Shown here: positions 4,231-55,262 of the stretch, piece after piece
Layout: each line of letters opens with the position of its first letter
Position numbering within the stretch: the first letter of the stretch is position 1
DNA from: Cetorhinus maximus
Taxonomy: Eukaryota
Direction of reading: 5' to 3'
NCBI RefSeq assembly: GCF_964194155.1
Contig: NC_135899.1
Span: forward strand, 81,840,001-81,904,000
Length of the DNA: 64,000 bases
Program-made: the position numbers and the translations under genes
Notes under the pieces: generated by a model
What the model was told of the DNA's origin: nothing
What the model saw: only the letters and a program-made list of their open reading frames with translations
Databases searched by the model: none

Positions 4231-6812
4231 GACGGCAAATAGTGGAATTTGAATTCAATAAAAATCTGGAATTAAAAGTCTAATGATGACCATTGAACCA
4301 TTGTCAATCTTATAAAAACCCACCTGGTTCACTAATGTCGTCCTTATCTGGTCTGGCCTACATGTGACTCCAGACCCACAGCAATGTGGTTGCCTCTGCA
4401 ATGGCCTAGCAAGCTACTCAGTTGTAACAAACCGCTACAAAGTCACAAAAAGAAATGAAACCGGGCGGACCACCCGGCATCGACCTAGGCACCAGAAACA
4501 ACAATGGCAAACCCAGCCCTGTAAAGTCCTCCTTACTAACATCTGGGAGCTTGTGCCAAAAGTGGGAGAGCTGCCTCACAGACTAGTGAAGCAACAGCCT
4601 GTCATAGTCATCCTCATGGAATCAAACCTTACAGATAATGTCCTAGACACCACCATCACCATCCCTGGGTATGTCCTGCCTCACCATCGTGTTGTGTGGC
4701 ACTACCACCGTGCTAAACGGGATAGATTTTGAACAGATCTAGCAACTCAAGACTGGGCAACTATGAGGCGCTGTGGGCCATCAGCAGCAGCAGAAATGTA
4801 CTCGAACATAATCTGTGTAACCTCATCGCCCGGCATATCCCCCACTCTACCATTACCATCATGCCAGGGGATCAACCCTGGTTCAATGAAGAGTGCAGGA
4901 GGACATGCCAGGAGCAGCACCAGGCATACTTAAAAATGAGGGGTCAACCTGGTGAAGCTATAAAACAGGACTACCTACATGCAAAACAGCATAAGCAGCA
5001 AATTATAGACAGAGCTAAGCGATCCCACAACCAACGGATCAGATCTAAGCTCTGCAGTCCTGCTACATCCAGTCGTGAATGGTTGTGGACAATTAAACAA
5101 CTCACTGGAGGAGGAGGCTACACAAATATCCCCACCCTCAATGATGGGGGAGCCCAGCAAGCAGTACAAAAGATAAGGCTGAAGCATTCGCAACAATTTT
5201 CAGCCAGAAGTCCTGAGTGAATGATCCATCTCAGCCTCTTCTGGTGGTCCCCAGCATCACAGATGCCAGTCTCCAGCCAATTCGATTCACTCCACGTGAT
5301 ATCAAGGCTGAAGGCACTGGATACTGCAAAGATTATGGGCCCTGACAATATTCCGGCAATAGCACTGAAGACTTGTGCTCCAGAAGTTGTCATGCCCATA
5401 TCCAAGCTGATTCTAAAATCAGGACAAATCCCACCCGGCCAGTTACCTACCACCCCATCAGTCTACTCTCGATCACCAGTAAAGTAATGGACGGAGTCAT
5501 CAACAGTGCTATCAAGTGGCACTTGCTTAGCAATAACCTGCTCACTGACGCCCAGTTTGGGTCCACCAGGGCCACTCAGCTCCTGACATCATTACAGCCT
5601 TGGTTCAAACATGGACAAAAGAGCTGAACTCCCGAGGTGAGGTGAGAGTAACTGCCCTTGACATCAAACCAGCACTTGACCAAGTGTGGCACCAAGGAGC
5701 CCTAGCAAAACTGGAGGCAATGGGAATCAGGGGGAAAGCTCTCCACTGGTTGGAGTCATACCTAGCACAAAGGAATGGCTGTGGTTGGTGGAGGTCAGTC
5801 ATCTCAGCTCCAGGACATCACTGCAGGAGATCCTCAGGGTAATGTCCTCAGCCCAACCATCTTTAGCTGCTTCATCAATGACCTTCCTTCCTTCATAAGG
5901 TCAGAAGTGGGGATGTTCGCTGATGATTGCACAATGTTCAACACCATTCGTGACTCCTCAGGTACTGAAGCAGTTCATGTATAAATGCAGCAAGACTTGG
6001 ACAATATCCAGGCTTGGGCTGACAAGTGGCAAGTAATATTCGCACCACACAAGTGTCAGTCAATGACCATCTCCAACAAGAGAGGATCCAACCATCGTCC
6101 CTTGATTCAATGACATTACCATTGCTGAATCCCCCACTATCAACATCCTTGGGATTAACATTGACCAGAAACTGAACTGGACTATCCATATGAATACTGT
6201 GGCTACAAGAGCAGGTCAGAGACTAGGAATCCTGAGACGAGTAACTCACCTCCTGACCCCCCAAATCCTGTCCACCATCTACAAGGCACAAGTCAGGAGT
6301 GTAATGGAATACTCCCCACTTGCCTGGGTGACTGCAGCTCCCACAATACTCAAGAAGCTTGACACCATCCAGGACAAAGCAGCCCGCTTGATTGGCACCA
6401 TATCCACAAACATTCACTCCCTCCACCACCGACACACAGTAGCAGCAGTATGTACTGTCTACAAGATGCATTGCAGGAATTCACCAAGGCACCTTCGACA
6501 GCACCTTCCAAACACATGACCTCTACCATCTAGAAGGACAAGGGCAGCAGGTAGGTAGGAACACCGCCACCTGGAGGTTCCCTTCCAAGTCACTCACCAC
6601 CCTGACTTGGAAATATATCGCCGTTCCTTCCCTGTCGCTGGGTCAAAATCCTGGAACTCCCTCCCTAACAGCACTGTGGGTGTACCTACGCCACATGGAC
6701 TACAGCAGTTCAAGAAGGCAGCTCACCACCACCTTCTCAAGGGCAATTAGGGATGGGCAATAAATGCTGGCCCAGCCAGCGAAGCCCACATCCCATGAAT
6801 GAACAAAATAAA
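4155..6812 (+). mobile_element. Near full-length decayed CR1-group (Crack-like) LINE with a tRNA-derived 5' head and no ORF1
   Basis: tRNA-like head at 4155-4230; APE N-terminus (KVLLTNIWELVPKVGEL...PVIVILMESNL); QPWFNEECRR linker; RT motifs GPDNIP, ALDIKPALDQVWH, PQGNVLSP, FADDC; C-terminal SLHHRHTVAA; tail ...cccacatcccatgaatgaa. Many frameshifts and two internal deletions. Confidence 0.9.
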
Positions 6813-10835: not shown

Positions 10836-11281
10836 AAGAATAATATAGGGAAAATTGGAGGGGGAGAAAGAACCAAAAAGCTTTGGCCTTTGAACTCAGC
10901 ATTTAACTGGTCTTAATGGATATGTGCTTTCAGAATGTATTGCCAAATGGATGCGTGCTCTGACAGTGACCAAAAGAAATCACCCACTTCTCTTTGTAAG
11001 TACAGCACTGCAAATGCATTAAGAGTACCAATGTGAACAAAGGGGTTATTTTATACAATGACTAGTAGTCAAGACAGGACTGCAAAGGGATAATCGATTT
11101 TAGACGGTACAAAGAAGCATGCTGAACTTAAGCAAAATTTGCTGATGATACAATACTTGGAGGTGGGGAGGAGGGTTATATACCACTCAACTGCAACAGG
11201 ACATAAAAGCAAAATACTGCGGATGCTGGAAATCTAGAACAAAAACTCAGCAGGTCTAACAGCATCTGCGGAGAGGGATAC

Positions 11282-11320
11282 AGTTGACGTTTCGAGTCCA
11301 TATGACCCTTCATCAGAACT
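11282..11320 (-). ncRNA. Minimal type I hammerhead ribozyme in PLE pseudo-LTR (core intact)
   Basis: Reads AGUU-CUGAUGA-A-GGGUC-auaug-GACUC-GAAA-C-GUC-AACU: stem I, conserved core, stem II, and an ACGU palindrome in place of stem III. Confidence 0.8.
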
Positions 11321-13349
11321 AAGACATATAGAAATGAGATGAAATATAAGCTGGTAGAGGGGGGTGGGTGGGACAGGTAGAGCTCGATAGGGGGCCAGTG
11401 ATAGGTGGAGGCCAAGAAGAGACTGCCAAAGATGTCATAGACAAAAGAACAAAGGGCTGTTGACAGTGGTGATATTATCTAAAGGGTGTGCTAATGGGGA
11501 CATTAAGGGAAGCAAGCTAGTGGGAGATGGCCCTGGTGCGGGTGGGGTGGGGGGAAGGGATTGAAATGGGCTAAAAGGTGGAGATGAAACAATAGATCGA
11601 AATAAATTTAAAAATAGGAGGGAAAAGAAAAAAATATAGTTGTAAAAAAAATGATAAATTATTGGAAAAAGGGGGATCGGAAAGGGGGCGGGGATGGAGG
11701 AGAGAGTTCATGATCTAAAATTGTTGAACTCAATATTCAGCCCGGAAGGCTGTAAAGTGCCTAATTGGAAGATGAGGTGCTGTTCCTTCAGTTTGTGTTG
11801 AACTTCACTGGAACATTGCAGCAGGCCAAGGACGGACATGTGGGCATGAGAGCAGGGTGGAGTGTTGAAATGGCAAGCGACAGGGAGGTCTGGGTCATGC
11901 TTGCGGACAGACTGAAGGTGTTCCGCAAAGCAGTCACCCAGTCTGCGTTTGGTCTCCCCAGTGTAGAGGAGACTGCATTGGGAGCAGTGAATGCAGTAGA
12001 CTAAATTGAGGGAAGTGCAAGTGAAATGCTGCTTCACTTGAAAGGAGTGTTTGGGCTTTTGGATGGTGAGGAGGGAGGAAGTAAAGGGGCAGGTGTTGCA
12101 CCTTCTGCAGTTGCATGGGAAGGTGCCATGGGAGGGGGTTGAGGAGTAGGGAGTGATGGAGGAGTGGGCCAGGGTGTACCGGAGGGAACGATCCCTGCGG
12201 AATGCCACCAGGGGTGTGAAGGGAAGATGTGTTTGGTGGTGGCATCATGCTGGAAATGGCGGAAATGGCAGTGGATGATCCTTTGAATGCGGAGGCTAGT
12301 GGGGTGATAAGTGAGGACAAGGGGGACCCTATCATGGCTCTGGGAGGGAGAGGAAGGTGTGAGGGTGGATGCGCAGGAGATGGACTATCCTCCATCTGGC
12401 TGAACTTGTTCTCTCACTGAACAATTTCTCCTTAAACTCATCTCACTTCCTCCAAATAAAAGGTGTGGCTATGGGTACCCGCATGGGCCCCAGTTATGCC
12501 AGTCTCTTTATGGGGTATGTGGAACATTCCTCGTTCCAGTCCTACTCATGGCCCCCCCCAACAACCCTTTCTCCGGTACATCGATGATTACTTTGGTGCT
12601 GCTTCATGCTCTCGTCTGGATCTGGAAAAATTTATTAATTTTGCTTCTAATTTCCACCCCTCCATCATTTTCACATGGTCCATCACTGACACTTCCCTTC
12701 CCTTCCTTGACCTCTCATTCTCAATTTCTGGTGATAGACTGTCCATCAATATTCATTACAAGCTTACCGACTCCCACAGCTACCTCGACTACAGCTCTTC
12801 ACACCCTGCTTCCTGTAAGGACTCCATCCCATTCCCTCAGTTCCTTCACCTCCATTGCATCGGTTCTGATGATGCCACTTTCCAAAACAGTTCCTCTGAC
12901 ATGTCTTCCTTCTTCCTTAACCGAGGTTTTCTACCCACGGTGGTTGACAGGGCCCCCAACGGTGTCCGGCCCATCTCCTCCATCCCCACCCTCTTTCCGA
13001 TCCCCCTTTTTCCAATAATTTATCATTTTTTACAACTATATTTTTTTCTTTTCCCTCCTATTTTTAAATTTATTTCGATCTATTGTTTCATCTCCACCTT
13101 TTAGCCCATTTCGATCCCTTTCCCCCGCCCCACCCTCATGAGGGCCATCTGCCACTAGCTTGCTTCCCTTAATGTCCCCATTAGCACATCCTTTAGATAA
13201 TATCACCACTGTCAACACCCCTTTGTCCTTTTGTCTATGACATCTTTGGCAGTCTCTTCTTGGCCTCCACCTATCACTGGCCCCCTATCGAGCTCTCCTG
13301 TCCCACCCCCTTCTACCAGCTTATATTTCATCTCATTTCTATATGTCTT

Positions 13350-13388
13350 AGTTCTGATGAAGGGTCATATGGACTCGAAATGTCAACT
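13350..13388 (+). ncRNA. Minimal hammerhead ribozyme motif (second PLE arm, one C>T)
   Basis: agtt-ctgatga-agggtc-atatg-gactc-gaaa-t-gtc-aact. Confidence 0.7.
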
Positions 13389-15074
13389 GTATCCCTCTCT
13401 GCAGATGCTGTCAGACCTGCTGAGTTTTTCCAGGTATTTTTATTTATGCAACAGGACATAGATTGGCCAGCAGAATGGGCAGATAATTGGCAGATGGAAT
13501 TTAACACAAAGAAGTGTGAGGTGATTCATTTTGGCAGAAGTGATAGAGAGAGGCAAATATACTTAATGGCATAGTTCTAAAGAGTGTGCAGTGACAGAGA
13601 GGCCTGGGGGCTCTTGTTCAGAGATCTTTGTAGTCTCCAGGACGTATTGGGAGAGTAATTAGCAAGCCAAATAAGATCTTGGGTTTCATAAATAGGGGTA
13701 TTGAGTACAAAAGCAGGGAAATTTGCAACCACATTTTAGGATGGATGCGAAGGTCCTCAAGAAAGTACGAAGGAGATATACCAGAATGATTCCAGGGATG
13801 AGGGAGTTTAGCTATAGGCTGGAGAAGCTGGGGTTGTTCTCCTAGGAGCAAAGGAGGTTGAGGGGAGATTTGATAGAGGTGTACAAGATTATGACCGGTT
13901 TAGATAAGGTAGTCAACGTAAAGCTGTTCCCATTCGATGATGGTGCAAGGTCTGGGGAACACAGGTTTAAGGTTTTGGGCAAAAGATGCAGGGGGGATGT
14001 GAGGAAGAACTCTTACACAATGAACTGAAACTTGCAGCCTGGTGGTGGAAGCAGAGATGATTAATGATTTCAAAAGGATAGGCACTTGAGGGAAATAAAA
14101 TTGCAGAACATGGGGATGAAGTGAGGGAATTGGGCCTGACTGGAGTGCTGCATAGAGAGCCAGCAGCGACTCAGTGGGCTGAATAGTCTTCTACTGTTGT
14201 CTTCCTTTCGGGGAGCACTAAAGCGATGCAACTTCACAAACTGTGTCGAACGGCTTAACAGGGAGTGAAGTAACCTGTTGAGCTCAAAGCTGGCAGTGCT
14301 ATTAATTGCTTTAATATGCAGATCACACATTTAAAATTCTTAGGAAAAATGTTATTCCAAATTGTATTTTCACTGCCATCTTGAGCATCTCCGCAATTAA
14401 CACTTGTACTTACTAACTGGAATTATTGCCTTGTAAAGCGTTTAGCTCCTTGCAGGGGAAAAAAAAAAAATCTTGAAAATTCAAATCTCAAGCAAATATT
14501 TAAAAGGTGTTTCTCCAGGAATCGCTAATGGGATTGTCCCCACAGAATATAAAGCAAAATGTTGCTTTTGCTGTGGCGTAGCACACATTTAGCACGTTCA
14601 CCAAAAACACAGGTTACAGACAAACAAAAACGAAAAAAAAAAAAATCCCTCCAGAGCACGGAGGAACATATGTTTGGATTTGCAGCACACCATTTCTGTG
14701 ACATTAATCATTCTGTGAAAGAAGGAACGATGGCAGCTGCGATGCCAAAGAACAGTTTCCACTATATACCCGCAGTTGCTTCTTTTGACACGAGCGTAAG
14801 AATAAGCTGATTACAAGCATAACTTCACTGCAGGCACATTGTAACAATGAGGTATGTTTAGACCGCAGCCCAGTGCTCTAATCAGGGCTCAGTGGCCTGC
14901 GTGTGGATGGACTGACTGATACGGTTGAATTGTGTCGTTAGTTTGCACACAGCAACTGCACAGGCATTGTGTACTGCAAAAAGAAACATTGCAAACAAAT
15001 ATAGATTAGGTACTACATATTCATAAGGGGTGTGCAATGAATTTGGTGGCGGATTATCGTGAGGTGAGAGAAAT

Positions 15075-22413: not shown

Positions 22414-23169
22414 GCGGTCTCCTCTACATTGGAGAGACCAAACGCAAACTGGGCGACCGTTTTGCGGAACACCTGCGGTCTGTCAGCAAGAAAGACCCAA
22501 ACCTCCCTGTCGCTTGCCATTTTAACACTCCACCCTGTTCTCTTGCCCACATGTCTGTCCTTGGCTTGCTGCATTGTTCCAGTGAAGCCCAACGCAAACT
22601 GGAGGAACAGCACCTCATCTTCCGACTAGGCACTTTACAGCCTTCCGGGCTGAATATTGAATTCAACAACTTTAGATCTTAAACTCCCCCTCCCCCCATC
22701 CCTACCCCATTTCTCGCCCCCCCCTTTTTTTTTTCAAAATTTATATAGATTCTTCTTTCCCCACCTATTTCCATTATTTTTAAATCTAAAACTAAAACCT
22801 TGTTAGTCTGTCCACCCCACCCCCACTAGAGCTGTACTTTGAGTGTCCTGTCTTCCATTCTTAATTAGCACTTTTCTTAGACAAATATCACCACCTTCAA
22901 AACCTCTTTGATCCTTTTGTCTGTGACATCTTTGGATTATCTGCTCCTATCACGGCTTGCTTATCTCCACAATCACCACACCCTCAACTTCTCTCTTCCC
23001 TCCCCCCCCCCCCCCCCCCCACCCACCTTAAACCAGTTTATATTTCTCCTTTCTCCTAACTATGCTTCAGTTCTGCCGAAGGGCCATGAAGGCTCGAAAC
23101 GTTAACTGATTTCTTCTCCGCCGATGCTGCCAGACCTGCTGAGTTTTTCCAGGTAATTCTGTTTTTGTT
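22414..23169 (+). mobile_element. 5'-truncated Penelope-like element (second subfamily), 10-bp TSD
   Basis: CGLLYIGETKRKLGDRFAEH...GLNIEFNNFRS* then 3' UTR; TSD taggtggagt at 22404-22413 and 23170-23179. Confidence 0.92.
23067..23109 (+). ncRNA. Hammerhead motif variant (CUGCCGA core)
   Basis: tcagtt-ctgccga-a-gggcc-atgaa-ggctc-gaaa-c-gtt-aactga; 6-bp stem I, one core substitution. Confidence 0.6.
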
Positions 23170-23387
23170 TAGGTGGAGTAGGATCCTGGTTTGGAACAAA
23201 TTATTTTAAAACCTGCCTAGCCGTCAAAGCCAGACATGGAATCCTAAAGCTGCCTTTCAGGGGTTGAGTTTCTTTGATGATTTGCCATTGCAAGGAAGCC
23301 TTATCTAACTTCAACTCGAGATGCGGGGATTATTTTTTTGCCAATATTCGCCCTCTGTTCCCTCTTCCCAAAGACCCTGGCCATTGA

Positions 23388-23529
23388 GATAAAGGCAAAA
23401 TACTGCGGATGCTGGAAACCTGAAACAAAAACAAAAAAAATGCTGGAAAAACTCAGCAGGCCTGACAGCATCTGTGAGAGAAAGACGGAGTTAATGTTTT
23501 GAGTCCATGCGACCCTTCATCAGAGACTC
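23388..23529 (-). mobile_element. Solo PLE pseudo-LTR fragment with decayed hammerhead
   Basis: Matches 11206-11320; minus strand ctgatgaagggtcgcatggactcaaaacatt (GAAA box lost). Confidence 0.8.
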
Positions 23530-24040
23530 TGAAAAAGAGACACATGGGTCATTGAGAAGGGGAGGTATAGAAAGATTTTATATTGAGTAGTCACTACATC
23601 AGGCCATTCATTCACACATTTGTCTGAATCCCCATTCTTCCAGGCGTTAACCCATTCATTTTAAATGGATTAACAACTCTATCAAGGTAGGAGAGAGATA
23701 AGTTTCAGACAGTGTTCATTCACAAGGGAACAGGTCTTTCTGGAATAATAATGGTGTGCAAACCGCTACTTACTTTTCTGTCGCCTTTTTCTCCCTCTCA
23801 CTTAATCCAATCTTTCTTTCCCTCTCTTTATTTTACTTTCTGTACCTGATTTGGCTCTAATTCATCCTCCTTCTCTGTTGTTCCGTTGTTTCTTTCTCAA
23901 TCCTTAAATCTCATTGGTTAGGGAGATAGACTGTTAATCCCGCCATTCACTGTGGCCCCAGATGTCCCACTGCCCTCCCCGCATCATTATCAGCTTGCAC
24001 TTCCAGCAGTTACAGTGCAGGAACTACTTGAGCTGAAAGG

Positions 24041-32574: not shown

Positions 32575-34325
32575 TTTGGTCATGGGACATGAACATCGCT
32601 GGCTAAGCCAGCATTTATTACTGATCCCAAATTCCCCTTTAGAAGTTGGCAGTGTGTCGCCTTCTTGAACCACTACAGTCTATGTAGTATGTGGTGTAGG
32701 TACACCCACAATGCTGTTAGGGAGGGAGTTCCAGGATTTTGAACCAGTGACATTAAAGGAAAAAAGCAAAATACTGCAAATGCTGGAAATCTAGAACAAA
32801 AACAAAAATACTTGGAAAAACTCAGCAGGTCTGACAGCATCTGCGGAGAGGGATACAGTTGACGTTGTAAGTCCGTATGACCCTTCATCAGAACTAAGAC
32901 ATATAGAAATGAGATGATATAAGCTGGTAGAAGGGGGTGGGACAGGAGAGCTCGATAGGGGGGGCCAGTGATAGGTGGAGGCCAAGAGGAGACTGCCAAA
33001 GATGTCATAGACAAAAGCACAAAGGGGTGTTGACGGTGGTGATATTATCTAAAGGATGTGCTAATGGGGAACATTAATGGAAGCAAGCTAGTGGCAGATG
33101 GCCCTACTGAGGGTGGGGTGGGGGGAAGGGATAGAAATGGGTTAAAAGGTGGAGATGAAACAATAGATCGAAATAAATTTTAAAATAGGAGGGAAAAGAA
33201 AAAAGTTATAAATTATTGGACAAGGGGGGGATCAGAAAGGGGGTGGGGATGGAGGAGAGAGTTCATGATCTAAAGTTGTTGAACTCAATATTCAGTCCAG
33301 AAGGCTGTAAAGTGCCTAGTCGGAAGATGAGGTGCTGTTCCTCCAGTTTGCGTTGAGCTTCACTGGAACATTGCAGCAAGCCAAGGACGGACAAGTGGGC
33401 ATGAGAGCAGGTTGGAGTGTTGAAATGGCAAGCGACAGGGAGGTCTGGGTCATGCTTACGGACAGACCGATGGTGTTCCGCAAAGCAGTCACCCAGTCTG
33501 CGTTTGGTCTCTCCAATGTAGAGGAAACCGCATTGGGAGCAACGAACGCAGTAGACTAAATTGAGGGAAGTGCAAGTGAATCGCTGCTTCATTTGAAAAG
33601 TGTGTTTGGGCCCTTGGACGGTGAGGAGAGGGTAAGTAAAGGGGCAGATGTTGCACCTTCTGCGGTTGCATGGGAAGGTGCCGTGGGAGGGGGTTGAGGT
33701 GTAGGGGGTGATGGAGGAGTGGACCAGGGTGTCCCGGAGGGAACGGTCCCTGCGGAATGCCGCCAGGGAGGGTGAAGGGAAGATGTGTTTGGTGGTGGCA
33801 TCATGCTGGAAATGGCAGAGGATGATCCTTTGAACGTGGAGGCTGGTGGGGTGATAAGTGAGGACAAGGGGGACCCTATCATGTTTCGGGGAGGGAGAGG
33901 AAGGTGTGAGGGCGGATGCGCGGGAGATGGGCCGGACACGGTTGAAATTAAAGGAACATTGATATAGTTTAAAGTCGGGAATGGTGAGTGACTTGGAGGG
34001 AGCTTGCAGTTGGTGGTGTTCTGATGCCTCTGCTGCCCTTGGCCTTCAAGATGGTAAAGGTCACAGGTTTGTAAGATGCTGTCGAAGGAGCCTTGGTGAG
34101 TTGCTGCAGTGCATCTTGTAGATGGTGCACACTGCTGCCACTGTGCGTCAGTGGTGGGGGGAGTGAATGTTGAAAGTGGTGAATGGGGTGTTGATCGAGT
34201 GAGCTTCCTGAGTGTTGTTGGAGCTGCACTCATCCAGGCAAGTGGAGAGTATTCCATCAAACTCCTGACTTGTGCCTTGTAAACAGTGGACAGGTTTTGG
34301 GGAGTCAGGAGATGAGTTACCCATT
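32575..34325 (-). mobile_element. Crack-like LINE 3' fragment (33947-34325 plus 32575-32761) split by a PLE
   Basis: VTHLLTPQNLSTVYKAQVRSLMEYSPLAWMSAAPTTL; the tail resumes left of the insertion. Confidence 0.88.
32762..33946 (-). mobile_element. 5'-truncated Penelope-like element, 10-bp TSD
   Basis: GIY-YIG ORF 33263-33592; highly similar to 11206-12385; TSD attaaaggaa at 32752-32761 and 33947-33956; hammerhead at 32857-32895 with mutated GAAA box. Confidence 0.94.
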
Positions 34326-34989
34326 TACCCAAAGTAAGGCGCGTAACAGTTCCTCTGTGTGTTAGAGAGGGCGAGAGGGATTGGTAGCTTGTGATGTAAA
34401 TTTGAATTTGCTACAGATTTTCAGAAAAATTATAATGAAGGGGATCATTTCTACCTGTCAGGTTGGGGTGAAGGGGGCAAGAGATGAGGTGGCATGTGAA
34501 GGGAATGCATTGCGATCAGATTTCATGCTAAGATCTACCACTTTACACAGGTTGTAAGACAGCGCAACCTTCTCAAGGGCAATAAATACCGGCCTTGCCA
34601 GTGACCACAACATTGCAAAAATTAAGTGAAAAAGCTTCTTCCCCTTCTGAGCTGCCTGAGGAGATGAAGCTGGGGATTCGCATTTGGTTAATGGAAGTGC
34701 CGACTGATGCAAATTTCTCGATGATTTCAGCCAGAAATCAAAAGTCAGCACATTCAGCTTAACAGATCCAGAGCAGCCTTTCCTATGAACTCAGAGAGGA
34801 GGAAATTACACTGGTTCAGGTCAACCTGAAGAGGGAGGGAAAGGAATGATCAAAAAAGTAGGTTTAAAGGAGGCTTTAGAAAGTGAGAGATGCCGCAAGC
34901 AGAGGGATTAAGGGAAAGAGAATTAAGAGTTACAGAAGAAAAAGAGATGGTGAGAGGTTCCACCACTAATGGTACAGTCTGTGGCGAGT

Positions 34990-35530
34990 TTCTTTATTCT
35001 TTCATGGGAGGCTAGTGGGCTATTGCCCATCACTAATCGCCCTTGAGAAGGTGGTGGAGAGCTGTCTTCTTGAACCGCTGCAGTCCATGTGGTGTAGGTA
35101 CACCCACAGTGCTGTTAGGGAGGGAAGTTGAGGCTGGTGGTGTTCTCATGCGTCTGCTGCCCTGATCTCTCTAGGTTGTAGAAGTTGCAGGTTTGGAAGA
35201 TGTTGCAGTGCATCTTGTATATTGTACAAACTGCTGCTGTTGTGTGTCAGTGATGGAGGGGGTGAATATTTAGGTTGGTGGATGGAGTGCCAATCAAGCG
35301 GGCTGCTTTGTCCTGGATGGTGTCGAGCTTCTTGAGTGTTGTGCAGGCAAGTGGAGAGTATTCCATCACACTCCTGACTTGTGCCTTGTAGATGGTGGAC
35401 AGGCTTTGGGGAGTCAGGAGGTGAGTTACTCGCCGTAGAATTCCCAGCCTCTGACCTGCTCTTGTAGCTACAGTATTTATATAGCTGGTCCAGTTCAGTT
35501 GCTGGTCAATGGTGACCCCTAGGATCCTGA
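34990..35530 (-). mobile_element. Crack-like LINE 3' fragment
   Basis: Reverse complement matches 6140-6800 with deletions. Confidence 0.85.
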
Positions 35531-35534
35531 TTAT

Positions 35535-41117: not shown

Positions 41118-42277
41118 ATATATGTAATATACACGCACAGTAAGCACATGCATGTTATCCTGCCTCCCAGTCTCAGACTCATCAGCATTTACCCACAGTG
41201 ATTAAGTGTTACTGCAGCCATATCTAATTAGAAGATCCCCTCAAGATCATTACAAAATGTTCTAGACTGAGCTGAGCAACAGTTGAGTGGCATCCCAAAA
41301 TAATCCATAGTTTACACTATCTACATCCTGTACTGCGAGAACTCTCCCACCCTCAGATTATTACATTGCTACTGTCAGCTCTCCCACATTTATAAAGTTG
41401 CTAGAACACCCTGCAGGGAATCAGAGCTCTGGTAATTAAAGATGGATAGAAACCCATCAAAAAGCAGCTTATCTTCTGTACCACCAGCCATCAGAACACA
41501 TCCTCCCACCTGTTAGCAGAGTCTTAATCCCACAGAATGAATTGCACTGAATCCATAATGATGTGGACTCTTAAGTCTATTTGCCTAAATCTATTGCGGT
41601 TCCCACTGAACTATGATGCATGTGTAAGCGATACAGCTGTGCTCTCAACCATGTGGAGTAATCAGTAATGAACAGAGACTCCAAAGCAGCCTGGCAAAGT
41701 CAATGCAGTGTACACCAGAGGCCTCTTCTTAATGCATAGTCAGGGAACTGATTAAATGGAGTTCTTCCTCGCAGGCAAGCTGGTGCACCTTGCAGATTGA
41801 ATGTGCACCAACTCATGACTAAAGTCAGGAATGCTAATCTAAACCCCTGCCTGTGCCTTTGCAGGGGGAAGAATATTAAAACGGCAGCGTTATCGACGCA
41901 GGTCAGGATCGCAGCCACTTCGTGGTTTCGCTTTGCTCTCCGGCCCCTCCCCCACAATCGTGGGGTGATTGTCTATGTATCACACGGATGTCTAGGTTCA
42001 GATGGCGACCGCGAGGTGTCAAAATGTTTGTCATCCTGCTACTTGGATCAATCTGTCGAGGCAGCTGTTGTATCACAACCTGCCAAACGAACAGTTTCCT
42101 TTTATTTACCTTTTTACCCTTCGCATCCTGCCACAAGAAGCTGAGGCTCCTGTCGTCTCAGGAAAACTCGCTGGAAGTCGGTAGCAAGCTGGCCCTGACG
42201 GCTTGGCGAGTTAATCCAGTGAGAAACTGAGTCAGGCGGACCAGGAAAGGGGGTCCAGGTTTGTTCCTCCGCCTTGA

Positions 42278-42515
42278 ATAAAAACAGAAAGTGGCGGAAA
42301 AGCTCAGCAGGTCCGGCAGCATCTGTGGAGGGAGGAACAGAGTTAACGTTTCGAGTCCGTGTGACCCTTCTTCAGAGCCCCGAAGAAGAAGACACATGTG
42401 GACTCGAAACGTTAGCTCTCTTTCTCTCTCCACACGTGCTGCCAGACCTGCTGAGCTTTTCCGCCACTTTCTGTTTTTGTCTCAGGTTTTCAGCATCTGC
42501 AGTATTTTGCTTTTA
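42278..42515. mobile_element. Palindromic PLE-derived mini-element with two head-to-head hammerhead motifs
   Basis: 42280-42375 is inverted relative to 42380-42478; degenerate TSD tccgccttga (42268-42277) / tctgctttga (42516-42525). Confidence 0.85.
42339..42378 (-). ncRNA. Minimal hammerhead ribozyme (core intact)
   Basis: Minus strand gct-CUGAAGA-A-GGGUC-acacg-GACUC-GAAA-C-GUU-aacuc, with an AACGUU palindrome. Confidence 0.72.
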
Positions 42516-43858
42516 TCTGCTTTGAGCCAGATGATGAGAAGGGCACCACAGTTAGCCCTGGTACAATAGAGTTAAAAGGGGGACAATTAGCAAGGATTAG
42601 TTATTGGCGGCTCCTGTGCAGCTGGAAGCGAGTGACAATGGGGATAGCATCGGCTGTGGGGCCACTCCCCGCACCCCCCCCCCCCCCCCCCACCCCCCCC
42701 ACCCCACCACACCTCCCACCCCAACCAAGGTAAAAATAACCTGTGTACATTCACTGTCAAGGTACTGGAGAGCAATCAAAGCTGGTAGAAACGTTTGTGG
42801 AATTCATAAAACAGTCATCTTGGGGAGGGAAAAGAGTTGTTGAGGAAGGCAAGAAATCTGAATCACATTATATCCATATTCAGCAATGTGCCATGTAAAT
42901 GGTGCAGAAATCCTTCATTAATTCTGCTTTAGAGATTCAGGCCTGGAAATCCTACTGTGCAACGCCCTTTATCAGGACTAAAATGGAGGCTTCAGACTTT
43001 TATATAGTGGGCAGAGGGCATGCACTCGTAATGTGTCAGATGTGCGCCACCCTCAATATTGGTAAATTCAGAAAAAGAAGCATTGAGGGTTCAGACCTGA
43101 AACGGGCTTTAGACCCCCTATTTGCATAGGCAAAGGCCATAATGCCGATTTGCAGCTAGTTTGATAAAAATGGCCTGAACTCAGGCTGGCTACATTCAGC
43201 AGGTCAGGTTCTACATTGCAACTTAACCAAGACCACCGGACACCGTCACCGAAGAGGTCATTTGTAAGGCAGACATTTCCCTGAGTATGAAGCAGAGGCA
43301 AGTGTACACTTCTCAGCTCGACTCCAGCGCCAAACGCCATTGCCAGTCTTCAATTGTCCCCTTCCCTCCCGCAATCACATCGCCCCTTCTTAACCTGGTC
43401 ACTGCACCTCCCAGCCTGATCAATTCTCCCCCATTCTTCCCCTCAACAGGATATGCCTGGGGGCTAGTGCCAGCATGACAGAGGTCCAAAATTCAAGTCT
43501 TCGTCACTGACAAGTTGCCTGCTTATGTCCAACACTTAAACGAGGCTTGAGGCTCAAAATTGGGTGGACTTTGGCTAGCAGCTCTGGCACAGAGACTCTT
43601 TCCTTAAGATGTCTATCATTTGGCAATTTCACTGGATTCAGATTATTCTTTAGCTGATTTCATCCTGAATGTGCAAATATTCCAGGCTGATTCAGAGCCA
43701 CTGAACAAAGAAAAATATTATAGATAGTCCAGGACCACAGCGCTAAAAATTGTTCAATAAGGAACAGGGTGATAGGAAAAGAAAGAAAAACTGGTGCTCA
43801 CAACCGCAGAATGTCCCGAACAGCTTTACAAAAGACCTGCAGTAAGGAGAAATACTTG

Positions 43859-46222
43859 GGCCGGAATTTTCCCCGAATTGCGCCTCGTCCGCTTCTCGCC
43901 TCATTAATTATGCAGCTGCAGGAAACGCACCGTCTCGCTGGCGGGCGGCCTCTGAATCGCCCACCATGACATAACCTCACTGTTACCTCACTCCGGGCGC
44001 TATACTTAAACTGCAGCCACACACACAGTCCTCAATGTTTGTAGCCCATTTATTGCCCACTGGGCAATAAATTGCTCCAGTGATGACACAGCCCTGAAAG
44101 GCAAGAAGAGTGCAGTGACTCGTCCCTGGAATGCCTTTTGGAGGCCCACTGTGATGTCCTCCACCCCCATTCTGGCCACAGAAGGTCCAGCAATCTCACC
44201 ACTCCGGCTTAGGTGGCAGTGGCTTTGGTGGCTAATGCCAATGCTGCACAGAAGAGGTTGGCCATCCAGTGCAGAAAGAGGATGAATGGTCTCAGCTATG
44301 CCACCAGGGTAAGGCAACTATCTCATCACTCTAAACGCACACACTCATTAAAGTGATGGAAGGGGTCATCTACAACGCTATCAAGCGGCACTTGCTTAGC
44401 AGTAGCTTGCTCACTGACGCTCAGTTTGGGATCCGCCAGGGCCACTTATCTCCAGGCCTCATTACAGCCTTGGTTCAAACATGGACAAAAGGACTGAACT
44501 CTAGAGGTGAGGTGAGAGTGACTGCCCTTGACATCAAGGCAGCATTTGACTCAGTTTGGCATCAAGGAACCCTAGCAAAACTGGAGTCAATGGAAATCAA
44601 GAAGAAAACTCTCTACTGGTTGGAGTCATACCTAACACAAAGGAAGATGGTTGTGGTTGTTGGAGGTCAATCATCTCAGTCTCATGACATCACTGCAGGA
44701 GTTCCTCAGGGTAGTGTCCTTGGCCTAACCATCTTCAGCTGCTTCATCAATGACCTTCCTTCCATCATAAGATCAGAAATGGGGATATTCGCTGATGATT
44801 GCACAATGTGTTCAGCACCATTCATGACTCCTCAGATACTGAAGTGGTCCATGTCCAAATGCAGAAAGACCTGGACAATATCCAGGCTTAGGCTTACAAG
44901 TGGCAGGTAACATTATGCCACACAAGTGCCAGGCAATGACTATCTCCAACAAGAGACAATCTAACCATCGGCCCTTGACATTCAATGGCATTACCATCAT
45001 TGAATCCCCCGCTATCAACACCCTGGGGGTTACCACTGACCAGAAACTGAACTGGACTAACCATATAAATACCGTGGCTATAAGAGCAGGTCAGAGACTA
45101 GGAATCCTGTGGTAAGTAACTCACTTCCTGACCATCCAGGACAAAGCAACCCGCTTGATTGGCACCCCATCTACAAACATTCACTCCCTCCACCGCCAAC
45201 ACACAGTAGCAGCTGTGTGTACCATCCACAAGATGCACTGCAGGAATTCACCAAGGCTCCTTAGCACCTTTCAAACCCATGACTGCTACCATCTAGAAGG
45301 ACAAGAGCAGCAGCACATAGGAACTGGTAGCTCCCATCCAAGCCACTCACCATCCTGACTTGGAAATATATCACTGTTCCTTTACTGTTCCTGGGTCAAA
45401 ATCCTGGAATTCCCTCCCTAACAGCACTGTGGGTGTACCTACACCAAATGGACTGCAGTGGTTCAAGAAGGCAGCTCACCACCACCTTCTCCAGGGCAAT
45501 TAGGGGATGGGCAATAAATACTGGCATAGCCAGCGATACCTACATCCTGTGAATGAATTTTAAAAAAACTTACAGGGCCATCACACATTCATTGGCGTCT
45601 CACTCACTGCCAGCTCACCACTCACTCTCTCACACCGACCCTCACAACTCCATCTGGCCTGATCTCCCCAGGAGACTGCCGCCTCAGCCCTCACCATCTT
45701 GATGCCACTTGCGCAGGTCAACATGTGTCCCCCCCACATGCCTTGGAATGCCCCTTTTCCCCAAGCAAGCCCTTGCCCTGCAGCCTTACGGCTGCTCTGG
45801 TAGGTAGAGACCTGCCCATGAGCCCCCTTAAAAGTGATGTGGTGCTGTCTGTGAAGCCTGGCGCTGATGACTCAGAGAGCTGCCCGAAGCAAGGTAGGCA
45901 AACAAACCTCGAAGTCCCGAGCAAAGTGCAGCCGGCCAAGTGCACGTCGCTTATGTTCAGTACATGAAACAGGCCGTGAGCTCATGATCTAGTGTAGGGG
46001 GTGATTGCGGCGAGGACAGCTTATAATGAGATGCTAAATGTATCGAAATTAGCTTCCAGATGTCCGATGGCGGGAAATGCAGCCTGCCGTTAAACAGGGG
46101 GAGCGGATGATCACAAACTGGTTTTATGACGATGTGAAACCGGATTTTGCAATCTCCTGATACTTCCTGCTCCTCCCGCCCGCTATGACCCCTGCTGCAA
46201 GCGGGAGCGGAAAACCCCGGCT
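43859..46222 (+). mobile_element. Deleted PIF/Harbinger DNA transposon with Myb/SANT-like exon remnant
   Basis: Imperfect TIRs ggccggaattttcc / ggaaaaccccggct; 3-bp TSD ttg; 44088-44308 encodes ...NAAQKRLAIQCRKRMNGL..ATR followed by a gtaagg donor. Confidence 0.75.
44351..45568 (+). mobile_element. Crack-like LINE 3' fragment nested in the Harbinger element
   Basis: ORF 44353-44910 RT: AQFG.RQGH, ALDIKAAFDSVWH, GVPQGSVLG, FADDC; same tail as 6740-6812. Confidence 0.92.
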
Positions 46223-52590: not shown

Positions 52591-54224
52591 TCTTTCTATC
52601 ATTTTGTCACTGTGGGTAGAGTAATGGCGCAGAGCCTTGCTTCAGCTGCTCCTGAGAAACACTCCCACAGGATGACGGTGCCCCTTGTAAATAACCAGTC
52701 TATGAAAGGTAAACATGGCTGTATCCGAAGAGTTTTAACTGAGTTCCCAGCTCTAACGATTACTGTTTTGGGTTTGCCTTTCGTCTACAATGCCCTTCTC
52801 CGCTTGTTGTGAACGTAGGCCCACATCCCATGGGCGATACAGGGGCCACGTGCAGCAGCAGGGTTCTGTCCTTCAGATTTAAATGGTGATTGACCTTCCA
52901 CAGCCTGGGAAGAAATAGGTAAAGAAATGGATATTAAGAAAGTGACACGCCGGTAATTATGATCCAATAACATCAGCCTTGATAATATTGATGTAAAGTG
53001 TCAACACTGTTTTGTAAAGGGATATATAATCCATCTGGAGGTGTATGCCAACATTGTGAGTGGAGAATGGAGAAAAAAGAATCACTGCCTTTCACATCTG
53101 GTGATGCCAGCTTGCCCGGTGCCCTGACATCATCTGTGTCTTTCAGTTATCGGGCTGCAGTGAGCTCAAGTTTCTTTTGGCTGGCACAGTGGGTTTTGCA
53201 CCCATATTGCGTAAAATGAAGCCTAACTGCCAGTGTCGTGTTTATCTTCCTTCCTGTGAGGTTACTAGCATTTAGAAATATGCCATGCAGAATGGGGCAT
53301 ATGTTGCAGAGAATGTGAAGAAGTGACAGTGTGGCGCGTCGCATCGCAATCAACTACTTAGTAAAATAGGAATTACTAGACAAAAAGGAGCCAAGATTGA
53401 GCCCATCTTCTACAGGTTGGCCAGCTCTTATGAAATAAAATAAGGAACACTTTGATCGTGGGACTTGGGGGAGAGAGAGAAGGCTCATCTTGAGAGGGGC
53501 TGGGGAGAGCGGCAAGTGCTGAGACCATAATAGCAGGGTTGGGGGTGTTTAAAATTAACTAAAACTTACGACTTATCTTGTTGAGTCACAGCATTATCAT
53601 CTCTCTGCTGGCTGACCCAATCAATTGCAATTCTGCTCGAATCATTCAGGCACACTCCCAGGATCAGTTTTCCACAGGCTGTCCTAGAAACATAGGACAG
53701 AAGACACCCCTTAGGGAGAGACTCGACAAACAGTCAAAATAGGGGACATAGCCTTAAAATATGGGACAGTTGGTCAGCCTGGTCTTCGACCAGCTGGTAG
53801 TTGCATGACACAATGATAAAGGCATTGTTGACTAATCACAACAATAAATCTCTATTAATATCCACAACTGGCTCAGATGGGATGTAAAGTGCACCCGTGA
53901 TGGAGCGCTTGGGAACCTGAGATCCAAAGTTCTTCCCCAGCAAACTCCATTTAACCTCAGGCCATGTTTCAAAATACTCATATACCTCACCTAGATCATA
54001 GCCGACACATTCGACGCCTGTCCTAGTTATAAGAGGTTCAGTTCTCTTTGACGTAATTATAGCATAGTATGGAATTTAAAAAAAATTATTATTGAACAGG
54101 CTTTCGGACAGACTAATGCTTCTGAGACATGGGTTCAAATCCCAGCCCGACAGCTGCAGGGTGAGTGTAGGAAGGTCTGATTGGGCTGGATAGCTCTTCA
54201 ACTGACATTGATAGGCTGAATTTT

Positions 54225-55262
54225 TCTTATTCATTCACAGGATGTGGGCATCGCTGGCCAGGCCAGCATTTATTGCCCATCACTCATTGCCCTTGAGAAG
54301 GTGGTGGTGAGCTGCCTTCTTGAACCGCTGCAGTCCATGTGGTGTAGGTACACCCACAGTGCTGTTAGGGAGGGAGTTCCAGGATTTTGACCCAGCAACA
54401 GTTAAGGAACAGCGATATATTTCCAAGTCAGGTTGGTGAGTGACTTGGAGGGGAACTTCCAGGTCGTGATGTTCCCATGTGTCTGCTGACCTTGTCCTTC
54501 TAGATAGTAGCGGTCGTGCATTTGGAAGGTGCTGTCTAAGCAGCCTTGGTGAGTTCCTGCAGTGCATCTTGTAGATGGTACACACTGCTGCCACTGTTTG
54601 TCAGTGGTGGAGGGAGTGAATGTATGTGGAAGGGGTGCCAATCAAGTGGGCTGCTTTGTCATGGATGGTGTCAAGCTTCTTGAGTGTTGTTGGAGCTGCA
54701 CTCATCCAGGTAAGTGGAGAGTATTCCATCGCACTCCTGACTTGTGCCTTATAGATGGTGAACAGGCTCTGGGGAGTCAGGAGGTGAGTGACTTGCTGCA
54801 GGGTTCCTAGTCTCTGACCTGCTCTTGTCGCCACAGTATTTATATGGCTGGTCCAGTTCAGCTTCTGGTCAATGGTTACCCCCAGGATGTTGATAGTGAA
54901 GGTAAAGGCATTGAATGTCAAGGAGCAATGGTTAGATTCTATCTTATTGGAGATGGTCATTGCTTGGCACTTATCTAGTGCAAATCTTACTTGCCACTTG
55001 TCAGCCCAAGCCTGGATATTTTCCAAGTGTTGCTGCATTTGGACATAGACTGTTTCAGTACCTGAGGAGTTGCGAATGGTGCTGAACATTGTACAATCAT
55101 CAGCGAACATCCCCACTTCTGACCTTATGATGGAAGGAAGGTCATTGAAGAAGCAGCTGAAGATGGTTGGGCCGAGGACACTATCCTAAGGAACATCCTG
55201 CAGTGATGTCCTGGAGCTGAGGTGATTGACCTTCAACAATGACAACCATCTTCCTTTGTGGC
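54225..55262 (-). mobile_element. Crack-like LINE 3' fragment
   Basis: GMFADDCTMF...WADKWQVRF...YKAQVRSAMEYSPL (ORF 54601-55116) and family tail. Confidence 0.92.

Follow-up and report, generated by a model that had tools for sequence, protein, structure and literature searches.

Insertion units of endonuclease-positive Penelope-like elements (PLEs) have been described (PMC3846280; PMC8557442) as containing inverted, 5'-truncated copies with pLTRs arranged head-to-head, a tail of 30-40 bp at one end only, a target-site duplication (TSD) of 8-18 bp, a palindrome at the inverted junction, and motifs resembling TATA and Inr close to where the pLTR begins. The pLTRs of metazoan PLEs carry minimal type I hammerheads, which according to the accessible part of PMC4209133 have the core, an unpaired base at 9-10, and a palindromic ACGU in place of stem III. 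Schistosoma hammerheads of this type occur in pairs on opposite strands, 100-700 bp apart (PMC4209133, same part). The non-LTR retrozymes are also derived from PLE pLTRs, and are small, non-coding and hammerhead-bearing; as far as the available text of the sources goes, they are head-to-tail tandem repeats, in which a same-strand pair of ribozymes gives rise to monomeric and circular RNA (PMC7229834; 10.64898/2026.07.22.740005). A PLE protein has been studied in vitro for a Poseidon element, which belongs to another clade than the PLE discussed here. In that work, the protein cuts and extends both DNA strands, with two start sites that bound the tail, acts on uncleaved RNA and does not need hammerhead cleavage; the experiments end before the second-strand steps (PMC11167929).

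The window analysed here is a stretch of 64,000 nucleotides of Cetorhinus maximus DNA (NC_135899.1, 81,840,001 to 81,904,000), and all positions refer to it. On inspection of its sequence, 42278-42515 consists of two PLE end modules, arranged head-to-head in a palindrome of 238 bases. The feature is real and represents a known kind, the inverted PLE insertion unit, here reduced to a minimal form of high copy number. It resembles the endonuclease-positive PLE units in each of the properties listed above. It differs from the published inverted units in containing the end module alone, in its very high copy number, in a single sharp 5' edge, and in a contrast between AGCT and AG-TT subfamilies that bears on junction formation. 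The hammerheads are of the minimal type I design; unlike those described for metazoan pLTRs, they abut, share the 5' strand of stem I, and are locked in a long hairpin. The unit has the size, the lack of coding capacity, the hammerheads and the pLTR origin of a non-LTR retrozyme, but in place of tandem head-to-tail repeats there is a single head-to-head unit with unique flanks and one motif per strand.

MITEs are short inverted-repeat structures with a TSD and transposase ends; unlike MITEs, units of the window type have TSDs of variable length and end at PLE start sites. L1 twin priming is an inversion that occurs during target-primed reverse transcription and joins two segments from different parts of the RNA, whereas both segments of the palindromes represent the same part of the RNA twice. 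No account of a palindromic PLE class made up of the pLTR alone turned up in a literature search; Repbase and Dfam were outside its scope, and the class may already be catalogued.

Anatomy of the unit

The features of the unit and of the related insertions are collected in Table 1. The arms 42278-42377 and 42378-42478 are complementary at 85%. The initial annotation had placed two head-to-head PLE ends at 42278-42515, with an intact hammerhead core on the minus strand and a decayed motif (CCGA, broken stem II) on the plus strand, and both its coordinates and its anatomy were borne out. The one-sided tail that it had likened to the asymmetry of the 11206-13446 insertion is indeed present in both places, as 37 bp on one arm here and as an equally one-sided tail there. 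The junction bases, which are probably the first bases of the parent RNA, form the 5' strand of stem I, in support of the idea that the shared centre supplies stem I.

Table 1. Positions of the palindromic unit, its parts and related insertions in the window
Feature	Position	Strand	Description
Left TSD copy	42268-42277		10 bp, differing from the right copy at two positions; from sequence, look-alike TSD statistics and related species
Tail-less arm	42278-42377	-	PLE unit in inverted orientation, roughly its first 100 nt, from hammerhead to inner end point
Minimal type I hammerhead, intact core	42345-42375	-	CUGAAGA, unpaired A, 5-bp stem II, GAAA-CG-UU, weak stem I; fits the description in the available text of PMC4209133
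Junction, four bases common to both arms	42376-42379		Ancestral AGCT, here AGCC
Tail-bearing arm	42378-42478	+	Sense copy of the same PLE segment
Decayed hammerhead	42380-42413	+	CCGA core, stem II broken
PLE tail	42479-42515	+	37 bp, on one arm only; tail described in the available parts of PMC8557442 and PMC11167929
Right TSD copy	42516-42525		10 bp, from sequence
Longer head-to-head insertion, AG-TT sister subfamily	11206-13446		RT and GIY-YIG fragments, tail on left arm, perfect 14-bp TSD
Second short head-to-head insertion	23390-23549	-	Full tail arm, second arm of about 20 nt, different centre, 8-bp exact direct repeat

The 10-bp direct repeat with two mismatches was also found as annotated, and both mismatches are C/T. 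Taken alone the repeat is weak (score 5 under a TSD rule with a threshold of 8); it sits at the same place as the clear TSDs of the look-alikes. A related species has T at 42270, as in the right TSD copy, and a new mismatch at 42269. Contigs of the related species cross both outer junctions of the unit, and none bridges its centre. Since both outer junctions are crossed, the insertion is old and shared. The repeats suggest a shark-like host.

Elsewhere in the window, a tail-less PLE end copy with a variant hammerhead is located at 22990-23170, and a tail-bearing one, at 32762-33530 and onward, reaches across the GIY-YIG region. Several copies of a different abundant repeat family, dispersed and with 80-90% identity, are present at 5556-6812, 33995-35531, 44426-45505 and 54221-55194.

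Dispersed copies and their variation

The genome search with the unit returned 3782 candidates, 40 of which were scored; all 39 besides the window copy were near full length, with 80-86% identity. The ancestral centre that the initial annotation had deduced, AGAG/CTCTG, was matched exactly in its 22-nt form at 369 places in the genome, as compared to 0 for the reversed control. Exact matches numbered 4043 for the hammerhead core pattern and 7008 for the tail junction pattern. By extrapolation from these pattern counts, the genome would hold several thousand palindromes, and the 238-base unit is one of hundreds to thousands of dispersed head-to-head PLE front ends. The samples are uneven: the loci picked by pattern come mostly from contigs C1 and C2, and L001-L030 are ordered by their similarity to the window copy. 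Of the look-alikes, 21/30 have TSDs of about 9-18 bp (against 4/870 mismatched flank pairs), and TSDs were present in 33/40 copies picked by their centre (against 6/768). At first sight, copies with the same centre and independent TSDs, which had been suggested as a check on the initial annotation, are thus abundant.

Uniform ends and a uniform structure, as expected of a self-replicating family, were not found among 90 insertions picked by the tail or among the 30 look-alikes. The 90 insertions comprise 13 symmetric ones with both arms at the edge, 27 that are otherwise inverted, 30 single-arm insertions (17 from the edge and 13 shorter), and 20 into the element body. The junction has the length of an exact palindrome in 9 of the 30 best look-alikes, and offsets range from -12 to +10. 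The initial annotation had held that differing centres would speak for independent by-products instead of a replicating family; this is borne out in part, as 21/30 copies deviate from the exact length. Among 40 centre-picked copies, 18 have a second arm of only 19-77 nt, and TSDs are intact in 16 of these 18. Such short arms fit self-primed extension as well as second priming.

Other departures from symmetry were also seen. L174, L197, L061 and L222 share a recurrent asymmetric junction, in which one arm's edge is joined to position 23 of its partner through a three-base microhomology in stem II. Rare palindromes (L047, L121) carry the tail on both arms.

The parent element and its 5' edge

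The arm segment is evidently the 5' start of full-length RT/GIY-YIG elements, in agreement with the PLE origin assigned initially. At 30 loci that match the 5' part of the ORF, all or part of the arm lies directly upstream in 14 (the whole arm in 11) and continues into the ORF region. RT and GIY-YIG motifs are visible in the translation. The natural frame of 534 amino acids, one of three frames scanned, matches RVT_1 with E 5.6e-6 and GIY-YIG with E 4.4e-4, both below the curated cut-offs. A C-x4-C-x2-C linker between RT and endonuclease, read in translation only, suggests the Neptune clade; a Cys-rich linker is a trait also of Nematis PLEs, as described in the available text of PMC8557442. 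Contiguity of arm and ORF in full-length copies, a tail of 30-40 bp at one end next to an inverted 5'-truncated copy, and TSDs of variable length all mark the units as endonuclease-positive PLE insertions.

The 5' ends of copies are concentrated at the A of AG(C/T)TCTGA. Among 72 ends that fall between -80 and +78, 20 are located at -2 to 0, 14 of them at -1, where 1.4 would be expected for a uniform distribution. The same 72 ends show no enrichment at the ribozyme cut site (2 observed, 1.8 expected). The AG-TT sister subfamily has its edge at -1 to +1 in 9/30 copies, and both of the edge-to-edge joins seen in it, L286 and L294, are blunt. TATAWW begins at -31 to -28 from the A in 20/30 copies picked by the upstream CTTTAG context, and is absent from 9/30 upstream regions, about five of which are truncated there. 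The AG-TT form at the edge fits the initiator consensus YYANWYY. The parent RNA probably starts at the A of the edge, about 30 nt below the TATA-like box, which is itself absent from the palindrome. Solo copies were also inspected visually for an additional cap-templated G ahead of the edge, which did not occur consistently.

A fixed stop point in the parent RNA accounts better for the shared centre than a replicating family does, since the same point is also used by solo, full-length and sister-subfamily copies. In L139, L193 and L227 the 5' end falls at -23 to -27, close to both the TATA-like box and a potential branch point; such ends are too few to define a second stop site.

Hammerhead motifs and folding

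As judged by core and stems I and II, the minus-strand motif qualifies as a minimal hammerhead and the plus-strand motif does not; no intact hammerhead motif is present on the plus strand of the unit. Stem I of the minus-strand hammerhead (42375-42345) contains one C.A mismatch and two G.U pairs, and cleavage is predicted between 42345 and 42344. A scan of the unit against Rfam yielded no hammerhead match. Matches to Rfam miRNA families were driven by the hairpin and stayed below the gathering scores, so that a miRNA identity was rejected.

The RNA of the full palindrome is predicted to fold with -155 to -158 kcal/mol. According to the initial annotation, the transcript would switch between this hairpin and an active ribozyme, and some features are compatible with the idea: the window copy has one intact core, both cores are intact in 21/44 palindrome pairs picked by pattern, and in the fold of the window copy the opposite arm extends stem I to 6/7 pairs. 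However, the hairpin is more stable than the fold that holds the hammerhead, by 42 kcal/mol for the window copy and by 60 kcal/mol for the better kept L101, with constrained hammerhead energies that are approximate. Moreover, the antisense arm is transcribed ahead of the ribozyme on either strand, and single minimal hammerheads were not cleaved in vitro in the experiments of PMC4209133 that are accessible. A switch is therefore extremely improbable. The palindrome product, which lacks the TATA-like box, would fold as a 100-bp hairpin and so likely neither cleaves nor copies itself.

Haplotypes of the arms and descent of the copies

The two arms of a copy mirror each other. Across 59 pairs, the non-CpG diagnostic columns agree between arms in 53/58, 51/58, 44/56 and 35/42 cases (28.5, 30.4, 30.1 and 23.8 expected), whereas CpG columns agree at about chance level. 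Rare variants are mirrored in 15/133 cases in these pairs, with 0.7 expected, and in 8/132 in 44 pattern-picked pairs, with 1.9 expected. Both arms of a copy evidently derive from one source haplotype; gene conversion between the arms could add to the mirroring. A column by column search of the 59 pairs for differences between left and right arms identified none at p<0.01.

All five main haplotypes are present in palindromes, long copies and solo copies alike, and the net divergence between palindromes and long copies is 0.0006 (permutation p 0.19). A single palindrome clade was rejected (p-AU 0.022), and the number of label changes on the tree was 28, as compared to 29 after shuffling. The tree was calculated for 59 tail arms and 36 long copies from 94 columns, with tail-less arms, solo copies and CpG columns excluded; it has no strongly supported branch and low power. 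Descent of the palindromes from master copies of their own would be expected to leave one clade and inherited arm-specific variants, and neither was found, with the reservation that the power of the tree is low.

A sub-lineage around the window's centre variant was considered and rejected. Of the 29 places with this variant, 11 have it on the tail arm and 14 on the tail-less arm, with 4 unclear, and it is found in all haplotypes.

The substitutions in the 44 pattern-picked pairs were also compared between strands. An A-to-I footprint was sought in these genomic copies, and no excess was found (A>G 49 versus T>C 38, p 0.28). On the tail-sense strand, non-CpG C>T exceeds G>A (55 versus 32, p 0.018, one of several comparisons); chance or the deamination of a single-stranded intermediate might account for this.

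Discussion

The unit, made of the first 100 and the first 136 bases of a PLE, is probably a dead by-product that is made anew with each insertion, when two run-off cDNAs are joined head-to-head. The parent RNA would start at the A of the edge, below the TATA-like box, and the PLE protein would nick both DNA strands. Reverse transcription would then start at two internal sites, +136 and about +100, which are the ends of the tail, and both cDNAs would run off the 5' end of the RNA after 100-136 nt before being joined. If the RNA begins with AGCU, the cDNA ends would be self-complementary and could anneal to yield a perfect palindrome, and other RNA starts would lead to blunt, overlapping or asymmetric joins.

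The arms have their outer ends at roughly +100 and +136; that of the second arm lies at 92-107 in 32/42 inverted copies. Run-on of 4-10 nt into the downstream sequence of the parent is seen in 8/30 copies, and part of it is microhomology with the target. Counted by hand, the first 50 palindrome tips listed comprise 44 with AGCT and 6 others, and the first 100 long-context copies listed comprise 57 and 43 (Fisher p 1e-4). The excess of AGCT is as expected if two cDNA ends anneal through this sequence. The tail-less arm extends more than 5 nt further in the 5' direction than the tail arm in 17/42 inverted copies; the bias in arm reach, 17 versus 7, is not significant (p 0.064). Arms that hold sequence missing from the tail arm argue for separate priming, although some of the 17 could result from later deletions.

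The closest rival to two run-off cDNAs is a fold-back, in which a single cDNA that has reached the edge serves as its own template after folding back at AGCT. Such self-priming, on an antisense template, has been proposed for the inverted ends of PLEs, namely for the junction palindromes of rotifer Penelope elements (PMC3846280, in its accessible part), and it would account for arms that mirror each other and for a second arm of variable outer end, as in the short cases with intact TSDs (16/18). It accounts poorly for the tail-less arms with sequence that the tail arm lacks (17/42), as exemplified by L002, the second best match, where the tail-less arm includes 18 nt of the parent body beyond the edge. 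The blunt edge-to-edge joins of the AG-TT subfamily also speak against it, and fold-back has no obvious need for the self-complementary AGCT, yet tip palindromes favour AGCT by 44 to 6. Taken together, we regard self-priming as unlikely. The position of the edge itself has a different main alternative, a 3' splice site instead of an RNA start, so that copying would stall or end on a splicing intermediate. Long copies have a pyrimidine tract and TAG ahead of the edge, with upstream sequence that also reads as a branch point, and in several solo copies the TSD includes the AG or G as well. Moreover, the available text of PMC4209133 places the end of the Drosophila Penelope intron at the 5' end of helix I (for the intron, see PMC2377424, likewise in part). 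However, AG is kept in most ends, including some whose AG does not come from the TSD (L119, L129, L132) and those of inverted arms (L286, L294), and the TATA-like box is at the canonical distance. Among 20 edge copies, none is a spliced-template copy and none has parent exon sequence upstream on the sense strand (the matches there are a host repeat and one inverted PLE body). The splice acceptor thus appears quite improbable.

The initial annotation had seen the unit as a retrozyme- or MITE-like parasite of the PLE machinery. Its transcript would be copied by the PLE protein in the manner of a retrozyme or SINE; in a variant of this reading, the second arm would be rebuilt from the first in each round. 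The hundreds of exact centres, the near full length and 80-86% identity of the 39/39 other scored places, the independence of the TSDs, and the inclusion of the tail, where reverse transcription starts, are what such a non-autonomous element should exhibit. This reading was not upheld in view of the absence of inherited arm differences, the haplotypes common to palindromes and long copies, and the rejection of a single clade. The low share of exact junction lengths (9/30), the occurrence of the window's centre variant on either arm and in all haplotypes, the lack of a TATA-like box in the palindrome, and the lack of an A-to-G strand excess (49 versus 38, p 0.28) also argue against it. Self-propagation of the palindromes is thus very improbable, though a slight chance is left to a cycle in which every round rebuilds the second arm, and the 42278-42515 palindrome is unlikely to be a new ribozyme parasite.

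If the palindromes are by-products of run-off cDNAs, as we favour, they are evidence on PLE integration and a useful record of its probable route. The ends of the short insertions mark the two start sites of reverse transcription and the likely 5' end of the RNA. The two subfamilies, which are one base apart, amount to a natural experiment on junction formation, and the mechanism is testable by junction counts. For annotation, the finding implies that the labels MITE, miRNA precursor and active retrozyme should be avoided for palindromes of this kind. It is tentatively conceivable, though on balance doubtful, that the palindromes are the footprint of a step with two RNAs and two primers, in which a dimeric PLE complex would prime both nicks on two RNA 5' ends, possibly paired via the palindromic AACGUU of the minimal hammerheads. 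The role of the ribozyme would then lie more in template pairing than in cleavage, and the step would explain why PLEs have head-to-head inverted pLTRs and a one-sided tail on a sense template.
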